A stretch of 64,000 bases of DNA from Tubiluchus corallicola (taxonomy: Eukaryota; Animalia; Priapulida). The stretch is from NCBI GenBank assembly GCA_030141605.1, contig JAQGDQ010002375.1, positions 124,001 through 188,000 on the forward strand, read 5' to 3'. The notes under the pieces are model-generated. The model ran no database searches, had not been told where the DNA came from, and saw only the letters and a program-made list of their open reading frames with translations. Shown here piece after piece: positions 17,199 to 52,741 of the stretch. The position numbers and the translations under genes are program-made. Position 1 is the stretch's first letter, and each line of letters begins with the position of its first letter.

Positions 17199-17286
17199 CT
17201 ACCGCTTCTTTAGTTCCTCATCCAGCCATTCCATGTTTTGCTCACCTAGACGTGACAGCAACTTTGAAAGTGCTATGTTGTACGGC
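17199..17286 (-). CDS. NDST: NDST last coding exon ([28 protein letters not shown])
   Basis: TTTCAG acceptor, phase 2; resembles the NDST C-terminal N..LSKLL..LG...P.WL..L pattern; TAG at 17201-17199. Confidence 0.9.
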
Positions 17287-20200
17287 CTGAAATAAATGCA
17301 GCAACAATCAACTTCTGAGAAACACTAACTCAACTTACACAAACAACTAAATCATCATCCAAGTGCTCATTTGTCTGTTTGTTACACTTATGCTTGTCAA
17401 TTCGTAACTTCATTACCATAGATAATAGTTTTTGGATATTGGTAAAAAAAAATGTGTTAAAAGCACAGTCAAGGCTCTTGGAAAGTTAAGCTTATTTTAA
17501 TATTTAAGAAAAATGCTAGAAAATTGCATCAGCAAAATTTTGATGACAGCCTCGTGTAATTAGTAAAATCAATTTAAAATCGTGATCACTTCACACTTAT
17601 GTGGGCTCACTTAGGACCAAAAGTGATGTAATTCGGTTACCAGGCAATATAAACGCCTATCCCCAGATGTTTGAACAAACATCTTGCAGCTGCGGTTACT
17701 ATTATCAACTATAAACAATCCAAAACGTTAAATGAGAGATTATTAATATCATTTTTTTGCTGTTAATAAATCCCATTGCCTCTTATTCAAAGAAAACCAA
17801 TTACTGATAATAATACAATAATCTTCAACTCAGCTAGTTAATGCCGACAATGTAAAAGAAGGATTATTCTAACAACCTAAAACTGAGCTCTACAAGCTAG
17901 GTAACACACCCGGCACCTACTATATGATCGCAGGCTCGCAGAATTTCATGCTTATCTGCAATTAGAATATACATAGTACTTATGCATTTTAAGATATATA
18001 TCTACGGATTAAAACTATGTAAGAACTCAGAAGTTGTTGCTACGTAATCCGATGACTAATTTTCACATAAACACAATTAAACAGAAAAATTTAATCAACT
18101 AGAATAGTGGAACTTCTGAGTGAACTGCAGAAGTTTTGTTATGCCTTTTGCACTGTCCACCTGCTTATATTATTTTTTTCAAATATGCCCACAACAAGGA
18201 TAAGAATGATTTAAATTTCTTTCGGACTTCTGAGCAAGGCATTTTATATGTGTATATTATGAGGTAATTTCAATATTTTTAATTGTATATATAATAATAA
18301 TCTTTATTTAAAGATGGCTATTGGGTGACCAATTAACATTAGCTCGAAGAATTATTATCACCGGTTGTAAATAGCACCTACAACTACATAACAGAGACTA
18401 TTATTACCCCACTTTTACCCTAAATACCATGCACCAGGCAGAGCAACAGCAGGTACCACTTTTAAAGATTTAGGTATGGCCCGGCCGCTGTATCAAACTC
18501 ACGACCTCCCAGACAGAAAATGGACACGTTACCACTAGCTAAACTGTCTGGTCAAAACTCCTTTGATGCCCACTCATTCAAAACACTTTATACCACTAAA
18601 CAATGACATTTGATTCATCCAGTAAGCAGTACAATACAATCAGACAACCAGCGCATGCAATTCACAGCAGATCTATGACCAGTTACGCAAAAAAATCAGT
18701 TAAAGACAGTTTGCCATATCTTCTGAGAACTGAGAATTACAAATAACTATACTAACAAAAGTTCAACCATCGAATTACCAGTTATTTTAAGCTTTGCATT
18801 CAAATACATTCATGTCTTTGGTATAGGGTGGCACAGCTCGGTGGTAGCGTGCTCGTTTCGCACCAGGGAGGTCGCAGGTTCAACTCCCAACCGAGTCATA
18901 CCAAGGACTTAAAAAATGGTACCACTGGTTCTTCGACCAAGCACACGGAATTATCGAAGTAACATGGGGTACTAATAATCAGGACCACCTTAGAAATAAG
19001 TATTGAGTTACTTAAGGTGTTATACCTGGAATAAGTCCTGAACGAAATTATTATTGTCATTATTATAAATACAGGCCCTACAAATTTCTAGGAAGCTAGC
19101 ATATAGTTCAGAATATATCACAGAACATATTGTAATTTACGTTTCAGTATACTTCAATATATCGTATCATTACCTATAATAATTAGACAAGAATTTTTCT
19201 GCACGTTGTTCCATGGGCGGATACATGCGACCCTTGCTCCGCCCAAGACATTTTGTATGGTCATCATGTACCACCTGACAGTAAAACCCCTTCTTTGGAT
19301 CATACCTATAATTAACAACAAAACACACACACCTGTAATTAACAATAAAACACACACACCTATTAATTAACAACAAACACACACATTGATTGAATAGGTA
19401 TAATCTGTTCCTAAACATCTGCTAAATTGGTGCTTTAGCTACTGAATGTTAGTTTTTGGAAAAAATGGTTTGTCGGCGGAAAAGCTAGTATTACTTACTA
19501 CTCATATACTAATATACATACTTGAGGTATTTCTCATAAGAAAAATATGGCTTGGTTTTCAAGAAGCGCTGCACTCGCTCCATGCTTCGAACTGGGTTAA
19601 CTTTTAACTGCTCCCCGTCCAAAATCAGCAACTACAAAAACAAAAATACGTCACTAAAATAGGCAATATACAATTCTCTTTGGTAAAAAAGCACAGAAAT
19701 TATCTATAGAATATCACAAATACTTAAAATGAATGTTGCAAAACTATAGGCTTTCAATCATAACGTTTATTTTATGCCTTTTACAGTACAGTATGGTGAC
19801 AGATGCCTTTTTTAGCTTTGCCGACATTATTTCTTTGACTGCGAAAAGCTTCAGTGAAAATATTTAATTTATAATAATTATTTTGAATAATATTAATGAT
19901 TTTACTTTCAGTGTACATTTTCAACAGGTGCCAAAAACCTAGAGCAGAAAATTATGTATGTGCGTGCCTATCAAATAGAAATTGTTGTTATCCAATTATT
20001 TTTGAGATAATTCCACATCCAAAGCAAAATAGCGTAAATATTAAATCATCAAAGAAGCAAACGACCAGACAAAAAAGAATTTAAAAATTATTCATCAATT
20101 ACCAGGTAGTAGGCATACTATTAAAATTGAGGCAATGGTCACACACTACCCTTTAATAGGCACAGTTTAAACAAAATTATTAATTCTTTTACCATGTAAC

Positions 20201-23200
20201 TCAACCTAAAGCCAGAAAAACACTAAACAGAAAACAAGAAATTTGGCATCCATGTGCGCTAGAAAAAAATAAAAAACAGAAACGGACAACAAAAATATTG
20301 TTTTGTGGAACCTTTTCTACAACAAGCACTGCTTGATTAGCGAAACAGAAAGAAGTGTTTGCCTAACATGAAAACTGTTGTTCAATAAAACACTAAGCAA
20401 CTGCAATGCGACAGCCAACCAATGACGAGTTACGCGTGATTGAAAAAAAATAGCAGCTTGTATTGTGGCTACTATAAAATTCAATTTTATGTATGTTTTT
20501 CTCTCTCGTGTACGAGGAGATGAATATCTGCACACGTGTGCAGCACAGAAAACACAAAAGAACCGCAAAACAAGTTGAAATAAATTTGACTGGCATTCTA
20601 TGGCTGGTACAGAAACAAAGCTACACTCAGACTACACTAAGCTTAAGCTAAATTCTCAACTGACAGAAGCAGCTATGAGGTTACTTACCTGATGAGGTGG
20701 ATAATAAGCCAGCCAACGTTCTAGATGTTGTGCGTACATTCCCGGACCTAGACAACGATTGCGAAGATCGCGTACAACTCTGGATGCTGTTTCATCAGCT
20801 GACACAATGGTGTAGAAAGAGTTGTTTAATGCAACGGGATCGCTGTGAGCTCTTTGGTGCTGTAGAAAGAAAGTATCGTACTTGATGTAATGTTGCATTA
20901 ACTCTTTCCTAACATACAAATTGTTTTGGCAGTGGTGTATAAAACAATCGATAATCTTCATTTTGTGCCACAAGAGATAAAAGTAATTTTTTGAAAGAGA
21001 ATTTGATTTCTAGTGCTGCACATGTTTATAAAAAATCCGAAGGAAATTTTTCTGATAATCCAAATCCCTCACCAAATCCAGTTAGTGTCCGTTTCTGCTA
21101 AAAGTTATACAGCGCTCTTTTCTGGGCAAATAGTTAAAAAACTCACTTAAATCAGATAAGCAATGCAGCTTTACAGCTGTTCAATACATCTGTACAGCTG
21201 CAGATATTAACTTACTATGAAATTCACAATGCAAGTGAACAGAACGACGACGAATTAGCAGTTATTGTGCAGTAAGTGAAAAACACATTTTCTGCCAGCC
21301 TGCTACTACAAATACTGTGCAATAAGTTAAATAAATCATTGCTATTCCAAGCAGAAAACTCAAAATAAGAAAATACTGCATGAAAAAAGTTGTTTTTACA
21401 TTGAATACTTATACGTTGGCAACACATTGCCCAAGTTTTCTAGCAGTAGGAAGCTGCAGTATAATGTTTTCACTTTCACCATCACTAGTAAAACACAGGT
21501 ATAACAGGTAAATGGCTATACTGGTCAGAAAATAGACAAATTAGTACTGCTTGTTCTGCTTGTAACCCTAATCCTAGACCTAACTCTAACCCTAACGAAA
21601 TTTTTTTATGTAATACCTACAATTATTAAAGAAATTTAATACATGCCTGGCATGTCTAGTCAGTGATTTAATAAAAAACTGAATACGAATTAGCATACAA
21701 CTATATTTAATAAACGATATAAATTGATACTAGAAATATTTCAGATACATTAATCAGCACTAAGCAAAAAAACTACAAACTTTTCAAATCAATAGACACC
21801 ATTTACACCACATCTGGAAACCTGAGTGCACTTCGGCTTTCAGGTGTTTTTCCTCTACCATTTAACTCAGTCTGGGATGGCCAGATGTACAGCACCACAT
21901 GAATAACAATAAGCAATGAATGACAATAAAATGAAAACAATGCACGTTACCTGCAGTCACTTGAATGTACATACCTGGTACCAAGAGTAAGCTCTTCTAG
22001 CTGGATTGATGAGTATTGTGATTATCTTAGCATGAGGTAACAATGCGTAAGCCCGACTAGGCACGATGTCTTTATCGAAATATGTAGCGCTTTTCTCAAA
22101 CAAATAAATGTGTGGTGTTGAGTTGATCTGCGGAGAAGGAAAGTTGTCCATGTACCTGTTAAAAGTAAAAAACAGGAGAAAATGAAAAAAAGAGAAACAA
22201 ATAAAAATGCACTGTTACCTGAGTACAAAGTAATCAGCACGTGTAGCACCAACAACTTTGGAGATAAGGCTTTTGAAAATAAAACTAAAACACTCAATGA
22301 ATATACAGCAATAAGAAACGTGAGGCTTTTATGAAGCTTAACAACCCATGAACTATTATTCAAATTTACCAATTATTACAAATTCCAAAAGAATGAATTT
22401 CTTTTCACTGGAGAAGCCATATGTCTTGGTAAAGAACTTTAAATATTTAAAGTTGGATTAAATCAGTATAGCACTAGCAAGGATTTTAAGATGTTAAAGA
22501 AGCATTCCATTTTAAAATGAAATATTCCCATTAATCCATTAATTCTATAAATGTTTGAGGTACAATTTTTGCAGATGTATTAGCTTAAAAACCATTGCTA
22601 CTATACCAAAGAATAAGCAAAAGCAAACAGTTTGCTTCACATGTACTGAAAAGGTTTTTTATTGCACAAGGTGACATAACACTATCATGACCCGAGTTTC
22701 TATAATTGGGCATAAACGGCAAATATCTATAACAAGTAAATGTCTAGTTCAGGTGGTTAATAATAATTAGTGTGTGGCACATCACATCACATGACAACAT
22801 TAAATTCTATTGCAACAAAGATTACAGAAATGTTTATTTTAGGGGGCATAATCTTTGACTTTAAAAATTCCCAAAATGCACTGGTTTTTGAAGTTTGCAC
22901 AACTAAATGTTTAATCATTTCAGTAAAACGCAAAACAAATTATAATTTTGTTGGTGTCAAATAGTGCTGGGTCTGATTAATCAATTAAATCAATTATAAA
23001 TCGATTTGGGCTTTGTTTCTGATCCTCAATGATTTTTCCAGTAGTAGATGCCTATCGATTATATTATCAATTGATCATGTTCAACTTATTTTTTTGGAAA
23101 ATTTACAAAAATCGTACGATAAATACAATCATCATTGCAGTATAATCAAGTAATATGGTACTTGAAAAGTGATTATAATCGGTTATCAAATCGGTATTTG

Positions 23201-26200
23201 TATCTCATTATGAGAATGAACCACTTTTCCACCACTAGTGTGAACACTAATACTTTAATTAATAACAGAATTATTGCAAAATGTGCCTATTATGAAGTAT
23301 CTATTATGCAAAAGTGTGCCTTTAAGCAGTATCAGAAAAGGGGAGGAAGGGGAGGGAACCTACCAGTCTATGCCTTTATAGTAATTATTGCCATTGAAGA
23401 ACTGCACTTCCTCAAATGATGGAGTTATGAAATTGCTAAAGATCAAAGGATGCATGGAGAGGAATGTATAGAGTGCTGTGGTCCCTGTCTTCTGTGGCCC
23501 AATCACAAGAAACCTGGGTAACCTGGTACACGTCTTGTTTTTCGCCCAAATGGCTAGGTGTCGCTTGTCATCACAGGGATTCTATAAGATAAATTACAGA
23601 TGTCACAGCTACAATACTGACAGCAAAGATCATGTAAGGGTATCATTATAAATGGCTTTGATTTATTGGCTGTATTTAAAGAAAATTGAAACAATACATA
23701 CGTGAACAGCTGAAATCTTATAACGTTACTAAGTGATTGACTAACTGGTCTATAATAAAAAGCCTATATGAAAGCCTCTCACGTGAAGGCAGTCACGGTA
23801 TTAAAAATCAATAAGAAATGTAACATAACTTCATATATTGGTGGTAAAACAGGAAGTAAAACGTGCAAGGAAAAAGATGGCAAAAATTAGTTGGGGGCGG
23901 ATAATATAAGGATATGATAGATGAGATACTGAAGTGGATGATTAATGATACTCAGATATCGGCATACAAGATAAGGGTCTACGGATTTAGTAAGGCTGAA
24001 TAGTGTTTTATGGTGCACTAAAAGCTCTTGTGCTTAAAAATGGCTTTAGAACTACAAAGACTGACATAAACATTGCAAATAAAATATCGGTTAGTGACAC
24101 CTATAAAACATTTAGAGAAAAAAATGTTTCAAAAACTAGAAAGATTCGATAACATAAAAAATTGGGGACTGCGGTAAATTGCAAAAATGTTTACAGTAGT
24201 GCAAAGAAATTGATGTGAGTTGCAAAAACATAAGATATCAAACATAAACATAAACAAACACTATTAAAAAGTATCAGCTACATCAGGGTCATTACATTCT
24301 ATTGAATTTCTGGATATAGTTCAGGCCTCCATGAACAAAAATAACCTGCATTAGTTACAACGTCAATAACAAAGGTTGTTTCTTTATGCAAGGGAATATA
24401 AAATAAGTATTAATAAATTACGATATCCATTTTAGTTCAACTGCAGGAGCGAATACTAAATCAGAAATAAGATGTTGCCCCACTAAAAAATCAACCCCCA
24501 CATGTCCATACCCCACCTACGGTCTGCTCTTGAACGCACCTGCCATACAGGATCCTCCTCATCTGGAAACATTCTGAAGTATCTATCAGCTAGCTTAACA
24601 GGAGATTCAGACAACAGCTGCAGATTCGTCCAGCATTGAGTAAACTTGATGACGTTCTCAAACGTGTAAAGAGCGAGTCGATCATTGCCGTAGTTGGACA
24701 AGTGTGTCATGAAGATGTTAATCTGTATGTGAAAAAAATCAGCTTACATGTTTACCACTACATAAAACATCTACACGACATCAGTTACAACCAGTGTTAT
24801 GTAGTAATGAGTAACTTTGCTTTTTTAAAAATCAGTATTTTTACAGTAACACAGATGTCACTTCAGTCCTCAATGCACATTTTGCTCAAAGAACTGGCTA
24901 ACGCTATTTTCTATGTTCACTTGGTTAGTGAGGTCATTTTTGTGGCTATGCAAGAAAAAAGAATGCCTGCAATTTCTTTAAATATGCAGTTTAAAATGGA
25001 ACTTTCAAATTAAACCAGTTAAAATGCATTCAGAATTAGAAACTTGGTATTTTTTTAGCTCTATGAAGGTTAGTGGTTTGAAGAAATAGGAAAAACATAA
25101 AATAATGTTAAGAAAGCAGTAGTGACTAATAGAAAAAGCAATATGTAAAGAGCGACTTGTTGTATTTTTTCGATCAAAAAACACATTAACATTTGCATTG
25201 CACTAACATGTTAACTAACAATTTACTTAACAAATAACAAAGGTACTAGTAACAAACCCAAAATCGAGTAAATAACAATGATAAATGACGTAAACTGAAG
25301 GTGGCATTCAGAGTACAAAGATAATATACACACTCAATGTATCTGATTCATTTTTATATAAAAGAAAGGGGCTGTTTCACCAGTTTACATCAATGTTAGT
25401 CACTATGTTCAAGACAGCACTAACTTTTCGTCCATCACATTATTTTCAGGTGAAATTTATGCAACAAAAAAATCCACCGATTTAGGTTTCAATTTGCCAC
25501 AATGTATTGATGATTTAAACATGACCTGGCAAATGAGTCTAGAAAACATTACACAGTTGAAAGACAGTTATAAATTCACAATATAAAACTACTTCTCAAC
25601 TCTCAATATTGCTTCCAGAGCATGCAGCACAACTGAAGGATAACTATGCAACTGTAAAAACGATTTGCAGGTTTGTCCACACAGAAACATTGCCCCAACA
25701 CCCAACAAACTTGTAAACCTTTATCCTGGGTAGAGGCATTTGTAAAGGTCCACGTTATCATTTAACATCGTTTCCCTCTTTCCAACGAGCTATAAATTTC
25801 CCTCCAAAACTCCGAACAAGTAACGATAAAGCATTTTTCTACACAGCATTCCTCTAGGAATGGCAGGTAAAAAATCTCCAAAACTGGCCATTTTATGCTT
25901 TTATTCACTACTGCAATGCTGCATAAAAAAATGCTCTAGCGGCACCTGGCGAGGGTCTTGGAGGGAAATTTATAGCTCTTAGGAAGGAGGAAAAATGCAG
26001 CTACACTGCGATGTGGCTCTCTATTACAAATGCCTCTAATAGGATGAAGGATCACCAGTTAATATGGGGGAACATTTTTTCTAGATGGCCCTGTATGACA
26101 ATGACAACTTGTTTCCTTCGTTCTTGAAAGGTCATCGTTTTCAAGCGGAAAAACAATATTTCAGTTGACAAATTTTCATTGTAAGCGGATTTGTCGCAAC

Positions 26201-28229
26201 AGCTCCCAGTGACAGAATTTATTCCCAGAGTTCGAAAATGAAAACATTTCACAGCTCTTTGCAATCAATAATACATACAGGATTATTGAGTATTGTCTGG
26301 AAGAGTTCACCACCGTGAATACTGGCTTGTAGTTTGTGCTTTCCTCCAGGATACCGATCCAGGAAAACCGTGTGTGTAAACAATCCACATAGTTGCCGGG
26401 GTAACACCTGTAAGTAAGTAATTAACTAACTAATGTAGACAAATTAGCTCTGCTGTAAGCAATAACATCAGTTGGGAAGATAAGTCTGAATGCTAAAGAA
26501 GCTCGTCACACTAAAGCAGAGACTTTTCACTTTTCTGGAGTAAAGAACTCAATAATATTACTGTAAGGAAAGAATTAAATAGTGTAAGAATTTTGAATCT
26601 GCAAGGGAGATGTGATGAGAATTTTTTATTTTTACACAGCTATAATATTTTACATAAAACACATTATAAATAATGTAAATTGCAGTAAACTCGAGAAAGG
26701 GCATGCTAAATCGTTGTACAAAAGCAAAATGCTAAAAACAAAAAACAGCGGTATTTACCACTAAACTTCAATATCCATTTTCTACATTTGGCTGTAGATT
26801 AAACTACACCTATAACTGCGAGTGAGTGTGAACATCATACAAAGTGATTAATCTACGTTACTAATGTCGTAGATGTTCTTAAGCAGGGTTAACATTACAT
26901 TGATGAATGTACAAGAATAATGAAACTGAAACTCAGCCACTACATCCTTGAAGCCTCGCTAAAATTCTTACAGACTTATGAAGCTAAGAGGCTCTTACTC
27001 GTTTGTACAGAAAAACTTTGTTTAACTTTTCATTACTAAATTTAGTTCATATCACTCACAAATGCATAAAGCTATTATGCAGAATGCCAAGAGTACATGC
27101 ATAAGGCTTTCAAAAAAAGCAAAAATCACCCCACCTTAATGCCTCTATGTATGAAGCCTCTACGAGCCCTCGCAGGGTGAAGATGAGGATATTCTTCCGT
27201 GCTTGTCACTTGCACACCCCAAATCTGCAAGCGAAAGAAACGAATCTTTATATTTATATCCATTCATCAGCTTGTAAACTTGATCATTAAAGGAAACTGA
27301 GTTGATTTTCCATAGCCTACCCCAATTTGAAGTATTGTAAAAATGTACATTTTAACACCAATAATACTACAAAAGCACATCACAAACAAACACATCTGAA
27401 TCTGAATTGAGATGTACTGCACGTTTTTTGTGCAATGCATTTCCAAAATGCAGGCGCTACTGCCCATCTAACTAATGAATGGTGCAATGCATGCAACAGC
27501 GAAAAACTAGAAGTGCGAATGCGAACTTACGTTTGTGTGGTAATAATTTCTTCATGTAAATCATTCTTGAAAAAATAGCAAGTTCCTTTCAATATTTTAA
27601 AGACTAGATTGTTTTGACCTACAGTTTAAGATATGTCCACTTTTCCCTTAAGTTTATACGCCTAATATGCACTGTAATGTAGTACATACACATGAGACAC
27701 TATTACAGCCATTCAAAAAATGTGGCAGTTCAAAAAATCCTTGTTTGGCTTTTTAGATAGTACGTAAGTAAACAGACTGAAAAAATGAAACGAAAGTAAT
27801 AACAAAACAATAGGAATAAACTGCAAGTCTGGCTCATGATCCAGGCTTAGTTACTTGCATTGTTTTTCACATGTCACTAATTTCACTCCATTAATTACCT
27901 TCTTCCATGCATCGTACAACGGTTCATGCACGGGGTACACGCCAGAATGATGTGGTGCTACTGAATATCCTGTCTGTGCACTTATGTTATGTTTCTAAAT
28001 TAAAAATAACATAAATTATAACCAGTAGATCAATGCATTATTTAAAAATACATGTAGTAATGTAATGCTATTTTTAAAGTAAAAATGAAACAATCAGTTA
28101 CTGGAAAGCCATTACAATCCAAATATTCTGGAAAAATATAATAAATGGTAGAATAATGTAGCATATTTATTATATTTACTTTTTCTATGTTATACTTCAA
28201 AATGAGTAAGAGGTATCACACATAACTAA

Positions 28230-28270
<41 letters not shown>

Positions 28271-31200
28271 TTAAAAGTCAAATGTTTATTATGAAATAGT
28301 CAAGCTAATATTATTACTACACTTGCAGAAAAAGAATCTTATCATATCTAGTCAACTATGCCAGCTAACCGACTAACATGAAGTGAAAGAATATCTAACG
28401 GCATAAAAGCCCAGGTGCCGAGATGTTCTCACCTTTGCGAACGCCACATTCAAGTTCATCTCGTTTTCCAAGCTCTCCCTTGTAAGGATCTGATGTGGCT
28501 GACTGTGGCTCCACATGTGGCCAAACCAAGAAAACTTCGACGAGTGTGCTAATAATAATTGGAGAAATAAAAAATATAACTAACCGCTGCCAAGGAAAGA
28601 TTAACAGGCATGGTAATTAGACAAATTTGGTTCTTTGTTTTCATTGTGTCATTGTTTCTTCTTTCATTGTTTTGCTGTTCAGTTTGCCTGCAAACTCGTG
28701 TGCTTCTGTGGTAGAAGGATTTTGAGGAAAGACAAGGATGTTTTCCAGAAATGGTACAGGAACAAGGCCAGGTTAGTTATATAAATAAAGTAAAAATACC
28801 TACCTTTTAAGAGCTAATTACAGTCGCATGAGTTTCAATGCTTCATCTTTGCTTCCCAAAGCATTTTTGTTCTATCTTATATATATAGATACTTTTACGT
28901 ATCTCGTTATACATATTACAGTATTACTAGTACTATTTATAGTGTCGTTGTTGCTATATAAAAAAATTATTTATAGGTACTAACAGAATCTATTTTAGCT
29001 ATAACATTTACTTGTGCCTACATACTGCAAAACTTGGCTACAACTTAGTAATTAGTATCAGAACATATTTTCTACTAGTTGAGGAAATGCAAAAAATGAT
29101 CCTAAGCATTCACTTGGTTTTAGTTCAATTCAAAGAACTAATAAGTAAAATAAACAAAATTGATTGACCAAACTTGCTTAAAAAATAATGCATTTCAATG
29201 AAACAAAAAGTCAAATGCATAGTCTAGTTTGAAATAAAAAATGAAAAAATTAATCAATTGTCAAATTTTAGGAAGAAGACTTTGAGAAAAATGTGAGCCA
29301 ACCAAGATTTGTACCCAGTACCTTGAGGTTTCTGGGAACACTGCATGAATTTTTCTATTATTTACCAGAACTCAAAATTAAAATGCACTATTCTCTTCCA
29401 AAACAAAATTGTGATTTTTAATCGTGACCTGAAGGCAATAAATTAGCACTTTAATATTTTGGAACCACGTAATGAGTGTTAGATGCAAATAAACTCTAGC
29501 CACTGTTTACATTAGTTAGGCTAAATGTCCATTATGGAAAATTTCAGTTAACATGTGTATTTGGCACAATAGCAGAATAGCAAAAACAATACTGCATGCC
29601 AATGATTACAAGAAAGCAAAGTTAGCAAACAACTTTATATTTTTTCATTTTGTGATCAGAAATTAGACCCGGTGTGAAAGCTGTTTCATCACTTTCATGC
29701 TAGAAACAAATGTATAAATTACACATCTAAGGTTGTTACAAAAATTAGCAGTAAAGCCAAGTAGTTCAATTATATTTTGAATATAGTAATTTACAGTCAT
29801 TCCCTATCCAAAGTTACTTAACTTAACTAGTCTTTGTATGGTTTGCAACAGTTCATACATGACGTCTAGCCGCCAATTCACACACAATAAATGGCTTAGT
29901 TGTTTGGGGAACTAACTATAAATTATTAATATGTACTTACATTGTAATGGGCTTCTAAAAGCTTCTCATGCAGAAATTTGTACTTTAATGCATTTCCTTC
30001 AGCATAAAGTGCTGTAATACGGAATGGAGTAAAGAAAAAACCAAATCTACATAATCTAGTTCGAATAAACTTACCTTGGCCAACGAAGTCTAGGGTGGAT
30101 ATTTGGTAAATAAAAATTACGTTCGAATTAGTACGTACCTAACGCCAAGTCGCCAATGCTAACTAGTAAAACCATACTGGATGCTGACAAAGTAACTATG
30201 CCAATATCTGCCACCAAAGCTATCTTAGCTCTAAAAAGCTAACTGAGAGTGCTGCCACCTGTAATACCTGTGCAAACTGCAGATTCTTCTTCATGTGAAT
30301 TTGGAGGGTGGAGGATTCAAGGGAGTGGGGTTTGTAATGACTCCACATGTGCGGAAACCACGTGAAGTGATCTTTATGATCTGTAAAAAAACCTCCAGCA
30401 GTTCAGGTTCCGTATTGTTTACAAATTAGTTTTAATTATCTCATAATTGCGACTGGTTAAAGTAAGGCTTAATGAAATGAACCAGAATTTAAAGCAGAGG
30501 CACTAAGGCAAGTTGTCAAGGGAATTTTTATTATCACGCCTTAACTACACCCTTCAGATGATACTCAAACAGTCAATGTATTAGCTGGCTCTCTCTGTTA
30601 CGATGTCATAGTCCAAATAATCCAAATAACAGCAGATCCAAATATTACGCTAAAAACTCAAAATTATTATATTTTTAAAACCAAACTTGACTGACATAAA
30701 AATTGTGAAAAGCCAAGACTGAACTCAAGTTTGTAACAAGGACTTTCGTTTACATCCATCATCATCTCATAAGCAACGAGTCAGGACTGCGGAGTCGGTA
30801 CATCAAACTTCTGACTCTGGCTCTGACTCCGACTCCTAGAATTTTAGAAGATCCAACTCCGACTCTGACTCCAGCTCCTAAAATTTTAGATTCAACTCTG
30901 ACTCCGACTCCAACTCGTAAAATTTTAGGAACCCCAACTCCTGCCTTTAAGTAATAGTTTGTAGCACTCTCAATATTTAGATATAGTGTCATTTTGTCAC
31001 TACTTCTTATACTCGAAAAACAATCTAGCTGCATAGACACCAATGCAAAAGCATCCCAAAATGGGACGTTATGCATAAATTCGTTCAAAGTCCAAAGTAA
31101 CTGGAGTTTGAGTTTGTTTATTTTCTACTGATTATTCCAATTCTTCTAACAATAAGTATACTCAGGACTCCTGACTCCTGTCTTAACTTTTAACAACTGC

Positions 31201-33759
31201 AACTCCGACTCCTTTAGCACTGCTGCCTCCAACTCCACAGCCCTGCCGACAGTCCTGATTTTTTCGCATTCGCTTTCCGTTGACCGATTTTGTATTCGAG
31301 TACTACGGCTTGGAGAACATCACTTTGTCACCAATTCTCTTCATTTTTTGCACTGCTAATACTTAGGCAACTGGGCAATCAATGATAAAAGTATTAAGGA
31401 ATTGTTGAGGTTTCCAGGCTGTCTATTTGTTAAACTGAGTGAAATGTCCATTTGCTAAATCATGAGCAGTATCAAATTAGCAAAAATGTTAAAGTTGAAA
31501 AAACATCCAAAAATAGAGTGCTCAATCAACAACAACAGTTTTGCAACATGTTGTAATTAATGCTACATTATTGTTGTAGTTTATGATTATTTATGTTTAA
31601 AAAACATCGAATTCTGGCTTGAGATATTAACTAATCATAATGCTGATATATTGTTTTAAGTGGGCTAGCCCTCGTGACCTCGTCTCCATAACTTAAGCAA
31701 TATAAGAACACACGCTTAAAGTAACAGCTTTGCGAAAATTGCTACTTATAATAAACAGAGCAATTTGCAGCTCAAACCATAATGAAAACAGCAATAAAAA
31801 CTCAATAAAATTTGCTTTTGTACAAGGTAAACACTGGAAAGTATATGACCAAGCTTAACTATTCAAGGAACAGCTGTTAAAGTTTAGATGCAATATAACA
31901 GGGCTCACTTAAACAAGCTAGTAAAACTGTTAGCTTAAACATTTAAAGCATTCAAGCAGATTGAGCCAAACATTTTTTTAAATACCCTCAAAAAAAGAAA
32001 AATAGTAATTGATTTGCAAGCTGTAGCTTTTAAGTTGAAAAAATGTAAAATGTGCAAAAACAAAGAAGGAAAGACTCACGTTACGCCTACATCTACATAC
32101 AATATGGTAATTCATGGGACCATTAAGTTTAACATGTCTTAATTTTTTAATTCAAATTACTATTTAAATTCATCTTCTGCTGGGCATGACTTGTGTAAAA
32201 TCTTATGCTGATGTGGAGATCAATAAAAATTCATGCAGATCTCGGCTTATTACAATGTCATGCCAAATTACCAACCCAGAGTAACTGAAATAGAGCTCTT
32301 CTGCTTTTTTTCAGGGTTTTTAGACACACGATGCAGCAGCACAGATTTTGTGCAGGTTGCCAGTCTTCTGCTGTAGGTTTAAATAAGCAAGACACCTTGT
32401 CTAGCATTAACTGGCTTTCAAACCTAGCTTCCCTGTTGAAGTAAAATTTTACCTACTATTCTTTCATAAATAAACTGAATATTCAGAGTAAAATCAATGC
32501 TGTACGATGATTTTTATATAGCACATTCATTATACCTATTTTCTGAATTGTATTATAATCACAAAACATATTATCATAATTGATGATCCTAATAAATAAT
32601 GAGTTAAATTCGCTGGTAAATCAAATCCTACCTATTAATTCATCATCTCCTCGATTCTCCTCCTCGGTACCGGCATGAAAATATTTCCCAGAGAAACCCA
32701 AGTTGAACGTGAAACCGGGAACTCTCTGGCGTATTCTTTCTTGGGTGTCAACCAAAGCCTTAAGAGAAGCAAAAAATACTCGTATTAAAGTGAAAAATAG
32801 CCTAATAGGCTTTTCTTAAGTGGGAAATGAAAGTTTGGTTGAAAAATATGAACACAAACAATGTGAAAAATATCAATGCTGTTCATGTTTTTAAAAATAA
32901 CTAGTCAATTATTCACTAACACCTGAAAGCTCTTCATTTAAATTTAAGAATTTCAGGATTTGCTATGGCTAAACACTGAAACTGATAACTAGTGAAACTT
33001 AAGCTATACTGTCAAAAATGTTATTGGATAAGTGGCTATTTTAGTAATTCATTTTAAATGAGGCATAATTTCATATTAGTTTCAGTCATTAAATTGAAAT
33101 ATAAAAAAATAGCATGTTTCGGTGGTTTTACACGTTTGCCCAAATTAGTAGATAATGTTACAAAAAGCAAAGCACACGGGTTCAAAATGAATGCAGCAAA
33201 ACGCCAATTTGAAAGTTAATTTACTGACTGCAAACCCTAATGTAGGCAAGGAGGGAACCCACAAAGGCCTGGTTAATTTTTAATCCGTCACCATGGCAAC
33301 AAAAACTACCAAACAACCGCCGGCTGTGTTGTCAGATGAAATTAATCAATTGCTGGTTATTATTTAATATCGGGAAGCAGAAAGAAAAGCATGATGAATT
33401 TACATGCACGCTAATTAGCATACGCTAATGAGCCAGTGAATTATCCTATTCTGAACGCAATGCTATGCAAGATTCTATTCAATCTTTTCCAGATGGTTTT
33501 ACCTAAAGCACAGAAACACTAGTGTTTTGAATAACTAACTGTTAAAACGTTTGAACAACTAAATTTTTATCTAAGCTTTTTTCTATTTAGTAGACTCAGT
33601 ATTTTCAATGAGGCAATAATGCCTACAAATCTGGGACACTTACATTTTAAATTTTGGGGTTTTACTCTCTAAAAAATATTCCGGGACCTGCACAAAGAAG
33701 AGAATGTTCTGTACAAAAAAATAACACGATCACAAATTCCACGTTTAATAATATTAAAC

Positions 33760-33790
<31 letters not shown>

Positions 33791-36344
33791 TCCATTCAAC
33801 TAAAGCGGTAATTGAACATTAGAAATATATTCCCAGACAGCTATGCATCACATCACAATATTAAATCAAATATTGCACTCTGCATGCTGTGCTGTATTCC
33901 AAAAAAACTATTCACGCTTAACAGTTCTGCAATTCTAATCCAAGTTTCTAACATTACTTTTCCGGATTGCCACTGCATTTTAAATTACGGACATTCGAAA
34001 GCAATAACCATTTTGCCGGTCGATGTAGTTTACGAAAACAGCCGATAACGACGTTGTGGCTGCAGAAATGATGAAAGCGAGGAAAATTAATTGAGCATCA
34101 GCCATAAACTGATGAAAATATCAGAAAAATTGCCGTGTGACGTAAATGCTAAAGTCTGATAGCTTACATTCGGGTAATTTGAGTGGACTGCAAATGAAAA
34201 ATCATTTACCAATTTAGGTCTGGAATCTCAAAATTAATTTTTTAGTTTCCATCAAATTGTGCAGTCAAGCATTGTGAAACATTGGTAGCAATATTGACTA
34301 AGCTTTGCTTTAGGGGTAAAAAATTAAATAACATACATGAGAAAGCTTACATGGAACTACTGAATTTGGTTTGTCAACCATAAGGGATGAAGTCTGGACA
34401 ACCTTGACTACTGGGAAATACAGTGGCCAAGTTATCTAAGGCATATGCCTCATAAGTAGAATGTCGCTGGTTCAAATCCAGACTGTATTCCAACTTTTGC
34501 AGATTTCCTATTTTTCTAGATTGATCAAAATCTAATCTTAAAATTTAGTTTAATAGTAATCTTGGCATTACAATTATACTAACTGAGTTTAAATAACATT
34601 CACTGTCTACATGTAATTGTAATGTCTGACAGTTTGGACATCAAAATTCCATTTAAAAATGAAATTTACGAAATAAGAAAGATCAATTCGCCAAAAACAT
34701 GTATGTATCGTGCAGCATTCTGAATCCAACTGATACTAACCCGTACATCACTGGAGGTCATTCTCACTCCTTTCTCGCCAACAAAAATGTCGTCTACATC
34801 AACCAAGATGTATCTGAAACAATTACATGCAGGATTAATTTTTAGCACATCCTTACATTTACTGTAAGATAGTAACACTGTACACTAATGGCGCGTTCAG
34901 ACTAGTGAGTTTTCTGTCGCGATTTTTCTCTCTAACATCAAACTCGCAAATGTGAACTATCGAGCTACTATTTGCAAGTTATTTTAAACTCACTGACAGT
35001 TGCTGCGAGTTGATTTCCAGCAAGCTCCTGCCAGGTGTGAATGCCTCGGTGACTGTCAACTCGCGCTTACTCTCGGAGAGTAGCTCACAGCAAGTTTTGT
35101 TCTCTAAACTGAATACGCTTGCGAGTTACTTGAAGAGTTTTTTGGTGAGTTAACTAGACAAGAAAACTCGCTAGTCTGAATACACCATGAGAAATTCTTG
35201 TATACCTACAGTATATGCCACATATCAGTCACCAAGTCATGGAACTTTTCAACTTCCAATTGAACTTTTCAATTTCAAATTTTATAACTAATTTTGTCCA
35301 ATTGCCAGTTGGCTCCAGTCACAGAAATTTGAATGTGGCAGCTCATAACTACAGTACAGTACAGAAACAAATATTCATTTTAAAGTAATATCCTTTGCAA
35401 AAAGTCAGTCTCTGTTTAGCAGGATTTTCTTACCTGACAAATGGTGTTGACAGCTTTCCGTGCGACAAATAAGAAATTGCATCTAGAAATATTGGGCGAT
35501 GGAGCCAAAACTTGAAACCCTGCCCAAAAAAGATCCTACGCACACCGTCGAAGAATCCTTTGTCTTCTAACACTGTAGTCAAAAGTTCTTCAGTGCCATC
35601 AGTGTCCACATAGTGCTTAGAACGAGCAAATGCCACTGGCTCAAATGTCGAGTGATTAGTTTTGAAGACCGTCCACCTCCCGTGTTCGGGAATGGACCCA
35701 TGCTGAACTTCACCAGCACGCGTAATTCGCAGCACTTGTGAAAATGTGTTCAGCTCATAATCTCGAATAGGAACGTTCGTGTATACAGATAATGGATAGC
35801 CACGCAGTCGTGATCCGATAATTGTTTGCTCCCGATATGGGGCAAAATACAGGATACCTACATCATAATCTAGGCAATATTTATCTAACAAGTCTCTATT
35901 CCACTTATTCAAGCTAAAATAATGGTCCATGTTTTCAAACACAATAACAGCATATCTGCCTTTGTCTAAGTTAGTTAATACTGGCAAACTTTTACCCGCG
36001 ACATCCATCTTAAAGCGGAAACGATTCCACTCCAGTATCATCTTGATCTCCTGACCGAGCGAAGAGAGTGGAGTCTCTGTAAACACGAGCACTTTCGCAT
36101 CCACCCTCAGTTTGGCATTCGAATGGTGAGAGTTTGGCGGACGGGTTGACATCTGCGGACTGGTATTGCATTTGAATGTGGCTTCTAAGGGCACACGATT
36201 CCGAGATGTTTGGTAGATCAGCACCGCTGGCAGCACTGTGCTTAATATAAGCACAAGCACTACTGCCCCCTTGAGGGTAAAATGTTTGGTGATACGGCGA
36301 CATGTCATCTTCAACTGCAAACAACCGGGTATTCGACAGAACAT
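17199..36344 (-). CDS. NDST: Bifunctional heparan sulfate N-deacetylase/N-sulfotransferase (NDST/sulfateless orthologue); 14 coding exon positions, exon 4 in two alternative copies; ~873 aa (4A) or ~874 aa (4B)
   Basis: Exons join in frame with GT-AG introns: 35434-36344, 34741-34813, 32632-32758, [30268-30380 or 28433-28548], 27899-27994, 27135-27224, 26279-26407, 24540-24722, 23364-23581, 21975-22155, 20689-20859, 19522-19631, 19174-19305, 17199-17286. Summed lengths are 2622/2625 nt, both divisible by 3. NDST motifs occur in the expected order: N-terminal [36 protein letters not shown], VLPRQxCGLFTH, [47 protein letters not shown]. Confidence 0.96.
18290..18552 (-). mobile_element. tRNA-derived SINE, minus strand
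   Basis: Minus strand: A-box-like TAGCTAGTGGTAACG, GGGAGGTCGTGAGTTTGATAC, core CCATACCTAAATCTTTAAAAGTGGTACC, AATAAAG(ATT)n tail. Confidence 0.75.
18826..19065 (+). mobile_element. tRNA-derived SINE, plus strand (core resembles the MetaSINE domain as I recall it)
   Basis: A-box region GGCACAGCTCGGTGGTAGCG, B-box GGTTCAACTCC, core GAGTCATACCAAGGACTTAAAAAATGGTACC, (ATT)n-like tail. Confidence 0.8.
19174..19305 (-). CDS. NDST: NDST coding exon 13 ([10 protein letters not shown]...[28 protein letters not shown])
   Basis: 132 nt, TTATAG acceptor (two further in-frame acceptors 27 and 54 nt upstream), AG|GTAATG donor, phase 2-2. Confidence 0.93.
19305..19386. repeat. Three tandem 27-bp copies of the exon 13 splice acceptor
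   Basis: Minus strand TGTGTGTGTTTT(G/A)TTGTTAATTA(T/C)AG|G repeated, with exon starts at 19305, 19332 and 19359. Confidence 0.9.
19522..19631 (-). CDS. NDST: NDST coding exon 12 ([37 protein letters not shown])
   Basis: 110 nt, TTTTTGTAG acceptor, AA|GTATGT donor, phase 0 to 2. Confidence 0.93.
20689..20859 (-). CDS. NDST: NDST coding exon 11 ([11 protein letters not shown]...[23 protein letters not shown])
   Basis: 171 nt, TTTCTACAG acceptor, CAG|GTAAGT donor. Confidence 0.95.
21975..22155 (-). CDS. NDST: NDST coding exon 10 (YMDNFP...FEKSATYF...[12 protein letters not shown]); 3'-phosphate-binding motif
   Basis: 181 nt, TTAACAG acceptor, CAG|GTATGT donor, phase 2 to 0. Confidence 0.95.
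22962..23237. mobile_element. hAT-like MITE, degenerate
   Basis: Ends TAGTGCTGG / CCACCACTA, subterminal AATCG/CGATT repeats, flanks GTGTCAAA vs GTGTGAAC (6/8 match). Confidence 0.5.
23364..23581 (-). CDS. NDST: NDST coding exon 9 ([12 protein letters not shown]...[17 protein letters not shown]...[18 protein letters not shown]); start of sulfotransferase domain, 5'-PAPS-binding loop
   Basis: 218 nt, TTATAG acceptor, TG|GTAGGT donor, phase 0 to 2. Confidence 0.95.
24540..24722 (-). CDS. NDST: NDST coding exon 8 ([21 protein letters not shown]...EEDPVWQ)
   Basis: 183 nt, ATACAG acceptor, CAG|GTGCGT donor; overlaps ORF 24483-24710. Confidence 0.95.
25719..26050. mobile_element. Foldback MITE (long imperfect palindrome)
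   Basis: TAGAGGCATTTGTAA / TTACAAATGCCTCTA and GAGCTATAAATTTCCCTCCAA / TTGGAGGGAAATTTATAGCTC are nested inverted pairs. Confidence 0.8.
26279..26407 (-). CDS. NDST: NDST coding exon 7 ([43 protein letters not shown])
   Basis: 129 nt, TTACAG acceptor, GTATGT donor, phase 0-0. Confidence 0.95.
27135..27224 (-). CDS. NDST: NDST coding exon 6 ([30 protein letters not shown])
   Basis: 90 nt, TTGCAG acceptor, AAG|GTGGGG donor, phase 0-0. Confidence 0.95.
27899..27994 (-). CDS. NDST: NDST coding exon 5 ([32 protein letters not shown])
   Basis: 96 nt, TTTAG acceptor, AAG|GTAATT donor, phase 0-0. Confidence 0.95.
28433..28548 (-). CDS. NDST: NDST coding exon 4B, alternative ([39 protein letters not shown])
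   Basis: 116 nt, acceptor ATTATTAG after a T-rich tract, donor AAG|GTGAGA; phase 1 to 0; no stops; WFGHMWSH motif. Confidence 0.9.
30268..30380 (-). CDS. NDST: NDST coding exon 4A, alternative ([38 protein letters not shown])
   Basis: 113 nt, acceptor TTTTTTACAG, donor CAG|GTATTA; phase 1 to 0; no stops; WFPHMWSH motif. Confidence 0.88.
30782..31245. mobile_element. hAT-like non-autonomous element with (GACTCC)n subterminal repeats
   Basis: Ends CAGGACTGCGGAGTCGG / CCAACTCCACAGCCCTG; many ACTCCG/ACTCTG hexamers; source of ORF 30762-31088. Confidence 0.7.
32632..32758 (-). CDS. NDST: NDST coding exon 3 ([42 protein letters not shown])
   Basis: 127 nt, acceptor CTCTTAAG, donor G|GTAGGA; phase 0 to 1; conserved [10 protein letters not shown] motif. 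Confidence 0.94.
34417..34490 (+). pseudogene. tRNA-like element with CAT anticodon (tRNA pseudogene or SINE head)
   Basis: Acceptor stem AATACAG/CTGTATT, D-stem GCC/GGC, loop CTCATAA, T-arm CTGG-TTCAAAT-CCAG, then TTTT. It lacks the D-loop GG and has stem mismatches. Confidence 0.6.
34741..34813 (-). CDS. NDST: NDST coding exon 2 ([25 protein letters not shown])
   Basis: Acceptor TTTCAG, donor GTTAGT; phase 2 to 0; deacetylase DxDD motif. Confidence 0.95.
34888..35188. mobile_element. MITE with PIF/Harbinger-like TIRs
   Basis: ATGGCGCGTTCAGACTAGTGAGTTTTCT is inverted to AGAAAACTCGCTAGTCTGAATACACCAT. Confidence 0.75.
35434..36344 (-). CDS. NDST: NDST coding exon 1 (cytoplasmic tail, type II TM anchor, N-terminal domain)
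   Basis: ORF 35430-36359. First in-frame ATG at 36344 (MFCRIPG...), alternative ATG at 36308. Hydrophobic [19 protein letters not shown]; [10 protein letters not shown] and [10 protein letters not shown] motifs. Donor AG|GTAAGA (phase 2). Exon extends 5' as UTR to acceptor TTTTTTCAG, exon start 36537. Confidence 0.93.
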
Positions 36345-48745: not shown

Positions 48746-50169
48746 AGCAAATCGCTTAAAGGCAGATCTTAGAATAATTGAAAACTGGGCCAAACGTTGG
48801 TTGGTTAAATTTAATCTTAATAAGACCGAAGTCATGCTTTTCTCCCGTAAATCCAATGCTCCTCAATATCCTACTCTATATTTATCTAATACTCACTGAA
48901 AACTGTAAATGTTCACAAACATTTAGGTATCCATCTTACATCTGACCTGAATTGGAACTATCACGTCTCAAAAATGGTAGACAAAGCATTTTTAAAGCTA
49001 AACAACTTTCGACGCGTGTCAGTTAATATGCCCAGAGCTACGCGTGAACGATTATTCATTACGACTATTCTCCCTGCCATCGAATATGGTAACGTAGTAT
49101 GGTCAGGATGCAGTGAAAACAGTATACGTTTGTTAGAAAATATTCAGCTAACTGCTGCTAGAATCTGTTCTGGCGATATGTTTCGATCTTCCCCTGCAAG
49201 TATCTTGTCTGATAGCGGCTACACTAAATTAGTGACACGCTTCCATTATCATCGCCTATGTCCTTTTTTCAAAATAATCAATGACTTACTTAGTGCCCCA
49301 CTATTTAAGTGCAATTCTGCCGCCAAAGGTAAACGAAGTTACCCCCTATTATATACGCAGTGGTACTAAATACAGAAATTTTAATTGCCGTTCTGTTAGC
49401 TGTGAAAAATCGTTTTTCATATCGACCATTAACATGTGGAACAACTTACCACAGAACATTCGTGAAATTACATCCATTTCACAGTTCAAACAAGAGCTCA
49501 AATCTCATTTAAGTTTTTCGTTGCGTAAGAAACATTTTTCATTTGGTAAAGCTCCAATATCAGTGCATCATACGCGCATGAGAATCGGATTTTCTCAGCT
49601 AAACTATGACCTTTTCTCTAAAGGCTGTAAAGATAATAACGGTAATCCAATATTGCCGAATTGTAACTGTGGATTTCGATTTGAGTCTGTTGAACACTTT
49701 TTGTTGCCCTGCCCATTGCATCAACTAGCTATGGTAGTTATGTTTGATAAATTTAATGCAATACTTCTGCCCGAAAGCCTTAATATAGCTGCCTTAGGAA
49801 AAATGATCTGTTGAAGTTGTTATTATTCGGAAAAGACGAATTTAACTATGTTACTAACTGTAAAATATTCCAATGTATACATGACTTTATATTACGTACT
49901 AAACGCTTCCAGTAGTTTCTAACTCATATAAAATGCATCGTTCTTAAATAATCGTACATTAATATTTACTAACCGTCATTTTCTACTAATGTCTAATGTA
50001 TCACTGTAGTAAAACTTTAGTATACTAAAGCATACTAAAAACTAAGTATAGTCTATTCTTACTGTAAATGTTCTTGTAAACAATGTATAAAGTCTGTTGT
50101 GGTGAGGATCCTAAATCATGTTGTACAAACTGTCTGATCCAATCCTAAATAAATTATGTTTAAACTAAC
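48746..50169 (+). mobile_element. 5'-truncated non-LTR retrotransposon (CR1/L2-group LINE): ORF2 C-terminal half with frameshifts, plus 3' UTR
   Basis: Translates as DLRIIENWAKRWLVKFNLNKT, HKHLGIHLTSDLNWNYHV, ILPAIEYGNVVW, SFFISTINMWNNLP, RMRIGFSQLN and a CCHC finger CNCG..ESVEHFLLPC. AATAAA near 50148. Direct repeat GCTGATCACAC on both flanks. Confidence 0.92.
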
Positions 50170-51139
50170 GCTGATCACACTGGTTGGTCCACATAACAGA
50201 TGCGTGAATCAGAAACCACTATTCTCATGATTCTTTTGCTTTGTGCAGAATTTTTTTTAGGTAATTTGTTGTCAAAGACAGTACAGCTAGAAGGAGGGCA
50301 CTCAATAGAGGTGCAGACCGACGGATTCACGCACGGTCACCATTGGGAAAATTTATTATTTCGATACTTTTGATATTGCGGCCTTGACCTTTGACCTTTA
50401 CAACAAAATGTAAGGATTTACGGGTCCTTTCTTCTGCGATATTTGAACCTGTACAATGGGAGAGGGGAAAATCACTTAATAAGTAGTAAAACTGTAATTT
50501 AAACCAATAAAGTCGTGTTTAAATTAAAAAGATGAATATCAAAAGCATTGCTCGATTTGTCACATTCAAACGCCCCCCTCAGACCAACTCTCCCTGCATG
50601 GCTAAATGCACTCTTGATCGTTTCAGTGTGCTATTATTGAACTAGTGACATCAGGTCAAGGAACTTAACTTCATTACATGTAGAAAAGCACACATCAAAC
50701 CAGCTGCCTATTTAGCTTAGCTGTTTTTACGCATTTGTGTTTAGATAAACTGCCCTTCAGAACTTTCCTCCCCGCACATGATCAAAACTGCGTACAAATT
50801 AGATTTCCGCGCTTCTCTGAGAGACGTTTCGCAGAAACCGCTGAAAACGATTCGACCGGGATTTAGTCGAGCCACAAAAATCCACTTTTATGCCGAAACT
50901 TCACTGTTCATCAAATGAATCATCTGGGATGCGCTAACGGAGAGAAATATGATGTGCGCTGCGTGGAATATATTCGCCATAATTTACACTTAAAAGCACT
51001 TAGCATCTCTATAGTAGCTGTATAAACTTTGGTTTATATAGATTACAAACGGCGGCTGCACGCTACAATGTTACTGCATTATATAATCAATATCATAATA
51101 GCATACTGGAATTTGCATCCTCGTGTCTGTCTGTCTGTA

Positions 51140-52536
51140 TGTCCGCAATATCAGTCAAAGATATACTGTGTGTCCGCAATAGCAGTCAAAGATACTGTGT
51201 GCCCGCAGTATCAGTCAAAGGTACTGTGTGCCTGCAGTATCAGTCAAAGGTACTGTGTGCCCGCAGTATCAGTCAAAGATACTGTGTGTCCGCAATAGCA
51301 GTCAAAGGTACTATGTGCCTGCAGTATCAGTCAAAGGTACTGTGTGCCCGCAATATCAGTCAAAGGTACTGTGTGCCTGCAGTATCAGTCAAAGGTACTG
51401 TGTGCCTGCAGTATCAGTCAAAGGTACTGTGTGTCCGCAATAGCAGTCAAAGGTACTATGTGCCTGCAGTATCAGTCAAAGGTACTGTGTGTCCGCAATA
51501 TCAATCAGAGGTACTGTGTGCCTGCAGTATCAGTCAAAGGTACTGTGTGCCTGCAGTATCAGTCAAAGGTACTGTGTGCCCGCAGTATCAGTCAAAGGTA
51601 CTGTGTGTCCGCAGTATCAGTCAAAGGTACTGTGTGCCTGCAGTATCAGTCAAAGGTACTGTGTGTCCGCAGTATCAGTCAAAGATACTGTGTGTCCGCA
51701 ATAGCAGTCAAAGGTACTGTGTGTCCGCAATATCAGTCAATGATAATGCAAGTCATGTCCGCAGTATCAGTCAAAGGTACTGTGTGCCTGCAGTATCAGT
51801 CAAAGGTACTGTGTGCCCGCAGTATCAGTCAAAGGTACTGTGTGCCTGCAGTATCAGTCAAAGGTACTGTGTGTCCGCAATAGCAGTCAAAGGTACTATG
51901 TGCCTGCAGTATCAGTCAAAGGTACTGTGTGTCCGCAATATCAATCAGAGGTACTGTGTGCCTGCAGTATCAGTCAAAGGTACTGTGTGTCCGCAATATC
52001 AATCAGAGGTACTGTGTGCCTGCAGTATCAGTCAAAGGTACTGTGTGCCTGCAGTATCAGTCAAAGGTACTGTGTGCCTGCAGTATCAGTCAAAGGTACT
52101 GTGTGCCTGCAGTATCAGTCAAAGGTACTGTGTGTCCGCAATAGCAGTCAAAGGCACTATGTGCCTGCAGTATCAGTCAAAGGTACTGTGTGTCCGCAAT
52201 ATCAATCAGAGGTACTGTGTGCCTGCAGTATCAGTCAAAGGTACTGTGTGCCTGCAGTATCAGTCAAAGGTACTGTGTGTCCGCAATATCAATCAGAGGT
52301 ACTGTGTGCCTGCAGTATCAGTCAAAGGTACTGTGTGTCCGCAATAGCAGTCAAAGATACTGTGTGTCCGCAATAGCAGTCAAAGGTACTGTATGTCATG
52401 TCCGCAGTATCAGTCAAAGGTACTGTGTGCCTGCAGTATCAGTCAAAGGTACTGTGTGCCCGCAGTATCAGTCAAAGATACTGTGTGCCCGCAGTATCAG
52501 TCAAAGATACTGTGTGCCCGCAGTATCAGTCAAAGG
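51140..52536. repeat. Minisatellite of 29/31-bp units (GCAGTATCAGTCAAAGGTACTGTGTGCCT and variants), roughly 45 copies
   Basis: Seen directly; variant units (CAATAGCAG, CAATATCAATCAGAG) recur in patterns. Confidence 0.97.
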
Positions 52537-52741
52537 AACACCGATCTCGCCTGCTATAAAGATATCCAGTCAAACGAAATCCAAGTACGGTTTTATCATC
52601 CGGTCTCCACGTAATTTCTGCAGAGTATTAAATTTTTTAAGTTTCAACTTTAAACGTCACAGTTTCAACTTCACTTGAAAAATTTAAAATTATTTTTTCA
52701 CATTTGCGCGAGCCCAGGTGAATTTTCCGGCCTAATATATG

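Follow-up and report, generated by a model that had tools for sequence, protein, structure and literature searches.

Can one gene for the heparan sulfate enzyme NDST carry two versions of its own deacetylase metal site? The question is raised by a locus of the priapulid Tubiluchus corallicola, in which two homologous exons, 4A and 4B, stand in tandem between coding exons 3 and 5 of an NDST gene. The window referred to below is the whole stretch of 64,000 nucleotides that was analysed. NDST determines which parts of heparan sulfate are modified and to what extent, and the control of clustering by its deacetylase is described as poorly understood in the passages of the human NDST1 structure paper used here (PMC10864358). 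In our reading, 4A and 4B are probably mutually exclusive exons that arose from an early protostome duplication, and they would yield two enzymes that differ beside the metal site.

The NDST gene

The NDST gene is intact on the minus strand. Its ATG is at 36344 and its stop at 17199, and it has 14 coding positions with canonical splice sites, of which position 4 is occupied twice, by 4A and by 4B. Coding exon 1 (35434..36344) holds a hydrophobic, anchor-like stretch and the HSNSD_N domain. Coding exon 2 (34741..34813, 73 nt) carries a D-V-D-D motif that by homology would supply the catalytic base and the metal Asp (human D319/D320). Coding exon 3 (32632..32758, 127 nt) provides the donor that is common to 4A or 4B, and an intron of 2251 nt leads from it to 4A, the upstream copy (30268..30380, 113 nt). 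A second intron of 1719 nt (28549..30267) separates 4A from 4B, the downstream copy (28433..28548, 116 nt), and a third of 438 nt leads from 4B to the common acceptor of coding exon 5 (27899..27994, 96 nt). Coding exons 6 to 14 (17199..27224) encode the remaining deacetylase domain with an M-T-H motif, then the sulfotransferase domain up to the stop. In transcript order these are exon 6 (27224-27135), 7 (26407-26279), 8 (24722-24540), 9 (23581-23364), 10 (22155-21975), 11 (20859-20689), 12 (19631-19522), 13 (19305-19174) and 14 (17286-17199), all on the minus strand.

The domain order HSNSD_N, HSNSD-CE, sulfotransferase is complete, as seen from Pfam matches (PF25119 and PF12062) and from collinear tblastn matches along four homologues. 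The catalytic residues are all present: D-V-D-D at 309, a His pair in each alternative exon, M-T-H at 518, and K-T-G-T-T, the PAPS-binding Lys motif, at 605. The product is predicted to be a full-length enzyme with the catalytic residue set and with deacetylase and N-sulfotransferase activity on heparosan. It is at most 63% identical to any protein compared. Human NDST1 has the same domains in the structures described (PDB 8CD0, 8CCY, 8CHS and 9F6Z; PMC10864358). The equivalents of its H389 and H393 lie in the duplicated exon, and those of D319/D320 and H529 in exons that both isoforms share.

Exons 4A and 4B and their predicted splicing

Each of the two exons is flanked by AG on the 5′ side and GT on the 3′ side, has a length of 2 mod 3, is entered in phase 1 and left in phase 0, and is free of stops. 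The coordinates, lengths, splice sites and phases given in the initial annotation were reproduced exactly, and its count of 16-17 shared residues corresponds to two alignments over 37 residues, which give 17 and 16 identities. Each exon alone passes the 25-bit cut-off of the Pfam HSNSD-CE profile (PF12062), with 33.8 and 36.9 bits at profile positions 71-107. Both align with human NDST1 residues 383-416, and the two His are 389 and 393. A six-frame profile scan of the 64-kb window recovered the two copies at 57.7 and 46.5 bits and found no third, the next best match scoring 4.9.

Spliced in silico, the transcript with 4A alone encodes 873 amino acids and that with 4B alone 874. Joining both exons leads to a stop at codon 439, and joining neither to a stop at codon 373, which bears out the earlier claim that including both or neither shifts the frame. 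The last junction lies more than 1,300 nt downstream of either stop. Tandem homologous mutually exclusive exons (MXEs) are generally recognised as adjacent homologous exons of similar length with canonical splice sites and equal phases, which preserve the frame singly and are non-productive when both or neither are included. The 4A/4B pair has every one of these properties.

The reading frame itself would be the simplest way to enforce the exclusion: either exon alone is in frame, and the wrong products would be lost by nonsense-mediated decay. Two other mechanisms were considered. Steric exclusion is ruled out by the 1719-nt intron between the copies. In MXE clusters of the docking/selector type, one intronic element pairs with sites that flank each exon. 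A candidate element of this kind, at about 29927-29955 in the intron between 4A and 4B, paired with 32249-32270 and 28104-28125 no better than dinucleotide shuffles. The longest common perfect core is 8 nt, and 488 of 500 shuffles reach at least 8; the best energy of -21.3 lies inside the range of 20 shuffles (-25.0 to -18.9), in a test of a single sequence. It is very likely that both exons are used in this animal and that double inclusion and skipping would be removed by nonsense-mediated decay, not by steric exclusion or detectable RNA pairing.

A candidate hairpin of -15.8 kcal/mol may span the 4B acceptor.

The same exon in other animals

Both exons recur in other animals, as isoform pairs in three phyla and as tandem copies in Sepia and Owenia. 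Three protein searches and subsequent look-ups covered 30 clusters of relatives. In 4 of the 30, amounting to six gene-species pairs, the RefSeq isoforms X1 and X2 come from one gene and are alike except within this exon. The differences number 19 in Lingula anatina (columns 393-428) and 18 in Lineus longissimus; in the horseshoe crabs Limulus polyphemus and Tachypleus they number 15 each for paralogue 1 and 19 each for paralogue 2. RefSeq isoform models generally rest on transcript evidence. The exon-4 swap is thus annotated as isoforms in three phyla, represented by Lingula, Lineus and the horseshoe crabs. Between Limulus and Tachypleus each version of the exon is kept, with 2, 1, 2 and 0 differences out of 38 residues, against 4.1-7.0% elsewhere. 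Two further clusters, of Sepia pharaonis (P0147) and Owenia fusiformis (P0381), contain tandem read-through models with both copies, and Owenia has another model that carries the second copy alone. In all six animals the swapped or tandem exon is known from automatic annotation only, where the isoform pairs stand unremarked.

The other 24 of the 30 clusters have one exon version only among the members listed, a reading that covers 15 listed members in each of the clusters of 17, 31 and 193. They include all the insect, spider, scorpion, mite, millipede, gastropod, bivalve and hemichordate clusters, as well as Capitella, Tubulanus, Nymphon, the third Limulus paralogue and one further cluster. 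In gene models the absence of a second copy is weak evidence of loss, and genomic DNA is stronger. Among 36 metagenome loci, one (L029) has two copies. Five others of the 36, which include both flanking exons, hold a single copy with the same borders, four of them insect- or crustacean-like and one bivalve-like (L004, L006, L007, L008 and L010). The L029 copies, at 1072-1185 and 2413-2501, are 1.3 kb apart, and in the first the frame is interrupted by a stop between the codons of the two His. This stop reflects decay or an assembly error, and it suggests that copies can decay.

Among the 150 representative proteins listed, P0429 is the sole one with two exon copies in a read-through frame. They are about 20 codons apart, a spacing that could be short enough for steric exclusion there. 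The full-length Logan protein P0391 carries a single copy. In the fish loci L015, L018 and L020-L023 the exon lacks its 5′ intron; it starts about 13 codons earlier and has only the 3′ border in common.

Two minor observations were made among these sequences. In the bivalve-like loci L009 (about 2594-2677) and L010 (about 2863-2928) the beginning of the next exon is partly repeated, with a frameshift, about 100 nt upstream of its intact version. P0110, an NDST labelled as Sphagnum, falls into one group with Capitella, an annelid, and two other rows at a support of 99, and is likely to be animal contamination.

The metal site and possible catalytic differences

The HxxxH motif of both exons had been equated with the metal pair H389/H393 of human NDST1. 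This identification holds, both in the alignment to the human protein and in the ligand roles reported. In the passages of PMC10864358 used here, H389 and H393 bind the metal together with D320, the H389A and H393A changes abolish turnover, and D319/D320 are the catalytic base and the metal Asp.

The site had also been called NodB/CE4-like. Deacetylases of the CE4/NodB type have a His-His-Asp metal triad in a distorted barrel, and loops around the site set the deacetylation pattern, as described by a subsite capping model (PMC5855634). The NDST triad is indeed CE4-like, but the motif is H-M-W-x-H and departs from the H(S/T)xxH consensus given in that part of the source, with Met after the first His in both 4A and 4B; NDST is not classed as CE4. 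By analogy, we infer that the swapped loop may correspond to the CE4 capping loop.

In the model of a Limulus isoform the exon comprises the end of a helix, a strand (390-393), the His loop and a further helix (407-423), with pLDDT 83-95. The swapped exon may thus be a self-contained strand-loop-helix module of the deacetylase barrel. Transferred to the window, 4A, with Pro before its first His, would form the strand, the His-x3-His loop and the next helix, and 4B, with Gly in the same place, is its homologue. Both versions have the same metal ligands and core residues, and the neighbours of both His differ in every pair examined. With the ligands fixed, these neighbours (human 388, 392, 394-395 and the loop 398-404) would reshape the deacetylase cleft. 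The isoforms would then differ in rate or in their tolerance of an already sulfated chain, and hence in the length and spacing of N-sulfated domains by tissue or stage. We lean towards this proposal, that constant metal ligands in altered surroundings may give isoforms that differ catalytically and in their N-sulfated domains.

In all 7 pairs the first, or Pro-like, class is no less basic than its partner, and in 5 it is strictly more basic, a comparison that is partly circular in that an acidic residue helped to assign the class. Such a difference would suit different affinities for a polyanion. Single residues serve less well to tell the classes apart. The P/G difference before the motif and the YK/SQ difference after it, both singled out in the initial annotation, are not universal class markers, the residues before the first His being G/G in Lineus, D/G in Lingula and P/P in P0429. 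The N-glycan sequon was also tried as a class marker and does not hold across pairs.

A different account is that both isoforms are made and are catalytically near-equivalent. The swap would then be regulatory, and would act on enzyme level via splicing and decay, on stability, on glycosylation, or on partners such as EXT or the other NDST protomer. The identity of all metal ligands and core residues suits this account, as does the position of the cleft loops named in the passages of PMC10864358 used here (D319-V332, C486-G512 and T528-L538), all of which lie outside the swapped exon. Much of the variation between versions also falls in the helix after the His loop. It fits poorly with the changes next to both His in every pair, and with the separate conservation of both versions between the two horseshoe crab genera. 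Glycosylation can be read in both directions: the human N401 glycan site falls within the exon and the Sepia copies differ in their sequon, but the sequon is absent from both window exons and its state is equal in the two copies in 8 of 9 pairs. We regard near-equivalence as rather unlikely, and retain the proposal that the isoforms would differ in catalysis.

Vertebrates diversify NDST by means of four paralogues, according to the part of PMC10864358 consulted. In all the vertebrate rows compared, each gene has a single version of the segment, against two in the window gene. The exon swap had been likened to these paralogues, an analogy that two results weaken. Vertebrate NDST1-4 are nearly identical across this segment, and their differences in activity are therefore unlikely to arise here. 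Horseshoe crabs have the swap in each of two paralogues, which means that it does not merely take the place of additional genes.

Natural pairs of isoforms that differ in one 38-residue strand-loop-helix module around the metal site, on an identical background, offer a clean test of the role of the module. If the patterning proposal is true, they are also ready-made chimeras for studying what sets the length of N-sulfated domains.

Origin of the duplication

A tree built without the exon, by a quick method, places the window NDST among the protostomes, outside the arthropod and spiralian clades sampled. The exon itself is too short for a firm phylogeny: trees of its 38 columns with 18 and 52 rows are mostly unresolved. 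We consider it quite likely, from the comparisons below, that there was a single old duplication, in early protostomes, and that insects, spiders and many molluscs afterwards lost one copy. A single origin is likely, not shown, because the alignment has only 38 columns.

Approximately unbiased (AU) tests were run on 14 exon segments of these 38 columns under the LG and WAG models, after removal of the Tachypleus rows, which nearly duplicate those of Limulus. Separate duplication in every lineage is rejected, modestly, with p 0.031 (LG) and 0.013 (WAG). The tree with a single ancient pair of classes is not rejected (p 0.60 and 0.51), in a comparison that favours it to some extent, as the class labels of Lingula, Lineus and the horseshoe crabs were set by sequence likeness instead of copy order. 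Three further trees are not rejected under LG and WAG respectively: one with three classes (p 0.21 and 0.24), one with a pair private to the window animal (p 0.35 and 0.48), and one with pairs private to each horseshoe crab paralogue (p 0.16 and 0.14).

Alternatively, the exons could be real alternatives of repeated origin, through independent duplication in a few protostome lineages or through homogenisation of old copies. Several results are in keeping with this. The distribution is patchy (6 of 30 clusters), the free trees unite both Owenia copies, and under WAG the Lineus copies too, and the pair private to the window animal is among the trees not rejected. The single-copy loci share the exon borders, and the substrate for duplication is thus widespread. 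Beyond the rejection of the tree in which every pair is independent, three observations speak for common descent. In all five cases of known copy order (the window, Sepia, Owenia, P0429 and L029), Pro precedes the first His of the first copy, and four of the five second copies have another residue there. The nearest sequence to window 4B is a horseshoe crab exon (61% identity), against 43% to 4A. The pair is also retained in two horseshoe crab paralogues. Repeated origin thus seems unlikely to us, and we return to a single old duplication.

If the origin was indeed single, this is a very old splicing switch at a catalytic site, absent from the fly models checked, and the one-exon NDST annotations of invertebrates may be incomplete.

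The second copy of Owenia resembles the mollusc type and the first copy of Sepia, which hints at three exon classes, an arrangement that the AU tests neither reject nor favour.

A wider scenario can be offered tentatively, as a possibility short of an even chance. The protostome ancestor may have evolved a splicing switch in the active-site module of the NDST deacetylase, giving enzymes with different chain patterning. The switch would have been kept in brachiopods, nemerteans, annelids, cephalopods, horseshoe crabs and the window animal, and would have gone unnoticed through its loss in insects. Three exon classes may originally have made up the cluster, with different losses in different lineages.

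Constraint on the two copies

Synonymous sites between 4A and 4B are saturated (pS 0.95), against a pN of 0.39. Among 50 homologous segments, 10 positions reach a conservation of 98% or more, and both exons retain every one of them. When 20% of sites are substituted at random, the conserved residues and the open frame survive in 37 (4A) and 29 (4B) of 20,000 trials. These results suggest that 4A and 4B are old and both constrained, and they back the initial view of an old duplication with purifying selection on both copies.

One of the window copies could nevertheless be a relic that is rarely or never spliced, most plausibly the faster-evolving 4A. This is the more divergent copy: it has the longest branch in the exon tree, and its profile score of 52.3 bits falls just below the leave-one-out range of 14 others (52.7-76.1). 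Its acceptor, with 10 of 17 pyrimidines, is at the bottom of the range for the gene (10-15), and the homologous first copy in L029 bears a stop. However, 4A has kept its invariant residues, its frame and both splice sites, and random substitution at just 10% of sites leaves these intact in only 667 of 20,000 trials, a measure that a very recent loss of use would escape. A relic is therefore improbable, and we continue to take both copies as constrained.

The introns around 4A and 4B have no meaningful similarity, the best blastn match being the exon core itself, and the pair is therefore neither a recent duplication nor an assembly artefact. An artefact of assembly or a duplicated haplotype, which was already thought unlikely in the initial annotation, is effectively refuted by the synonymous saturation, the unrelated flanking introns and the same arrangement in other phyla.

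Comparison with known systems

Old, patchily lost clusters of homologous MXEs are known as such. In the account of muscle myosin heavy chain in PMC3912159, as far as it was used here, old tandem MXE clusters persist in some protostomes and have disappeared from others through independent losses, and multiple genes and MXEs can coexist. The NDST swap involves a different protein, and carries the catalytic metal ligands of a glycan-modifying enzyme. In general, the differences between homologous MXEs cluster at functional sites, and the MXE-MOD survey counts 9 events that touch catalytic residues, according to the sections of PMC7954323 consulted. As in those events, the NDST swap keeps the fold and exchanges residues near a functional site; unlike in the events as described there, the catalytic residues of NDST stay constant.

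An entry for NDST, sfl, hst-1 or heparan was not found in the 6 supplement files of PMC7954323, a survey whose full list sits on a website, nor an NDST entry in the one supplement file of PMC8373072. A description of the NDST exon swap was not found in the literature searched, which took in few subscription journals, bioRxiv supplements or web databases of MXEs. The NDST exon pair is apparently undescribed. Alternative RNA processing of the orthologous gene is known from Drosophila sulfateless (sfl), where, in the part of PMC7318944 used here, a 37-bp exon of the 5′ UTR distinguishes the RA and RB transcripts, and the coding content of circSfl is limited to the N-terminus. In the Drosophila cluster of 31 members, the 15 that were listed have one version of the swapped exon.

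Other features of the window

Two further features lie within NDST introns. A tRNA-Met(CAT)-like sequence at 34417-34491 on the plus strand, opposite to the gene, is in the intron between coding exons 2 and 3; with an Rfam score of 41.9 bits, it may be a pseudogene or come from a repeat. The intron upstream of 4A contains a 39-bp tandem repeat and a 26-nt inverted repeat at 30770-31211, perhaps a small mobile element.

Two overlapping open frames at 48890-49814 on the plus strand have no Pfam match at E 0.01. We take them to resemble the end of a LINE reverse transcriptase. A 29-bp minisatellite of about 48 copies at 51135-52536 creates the long repetitive open frames at 51004-52678.
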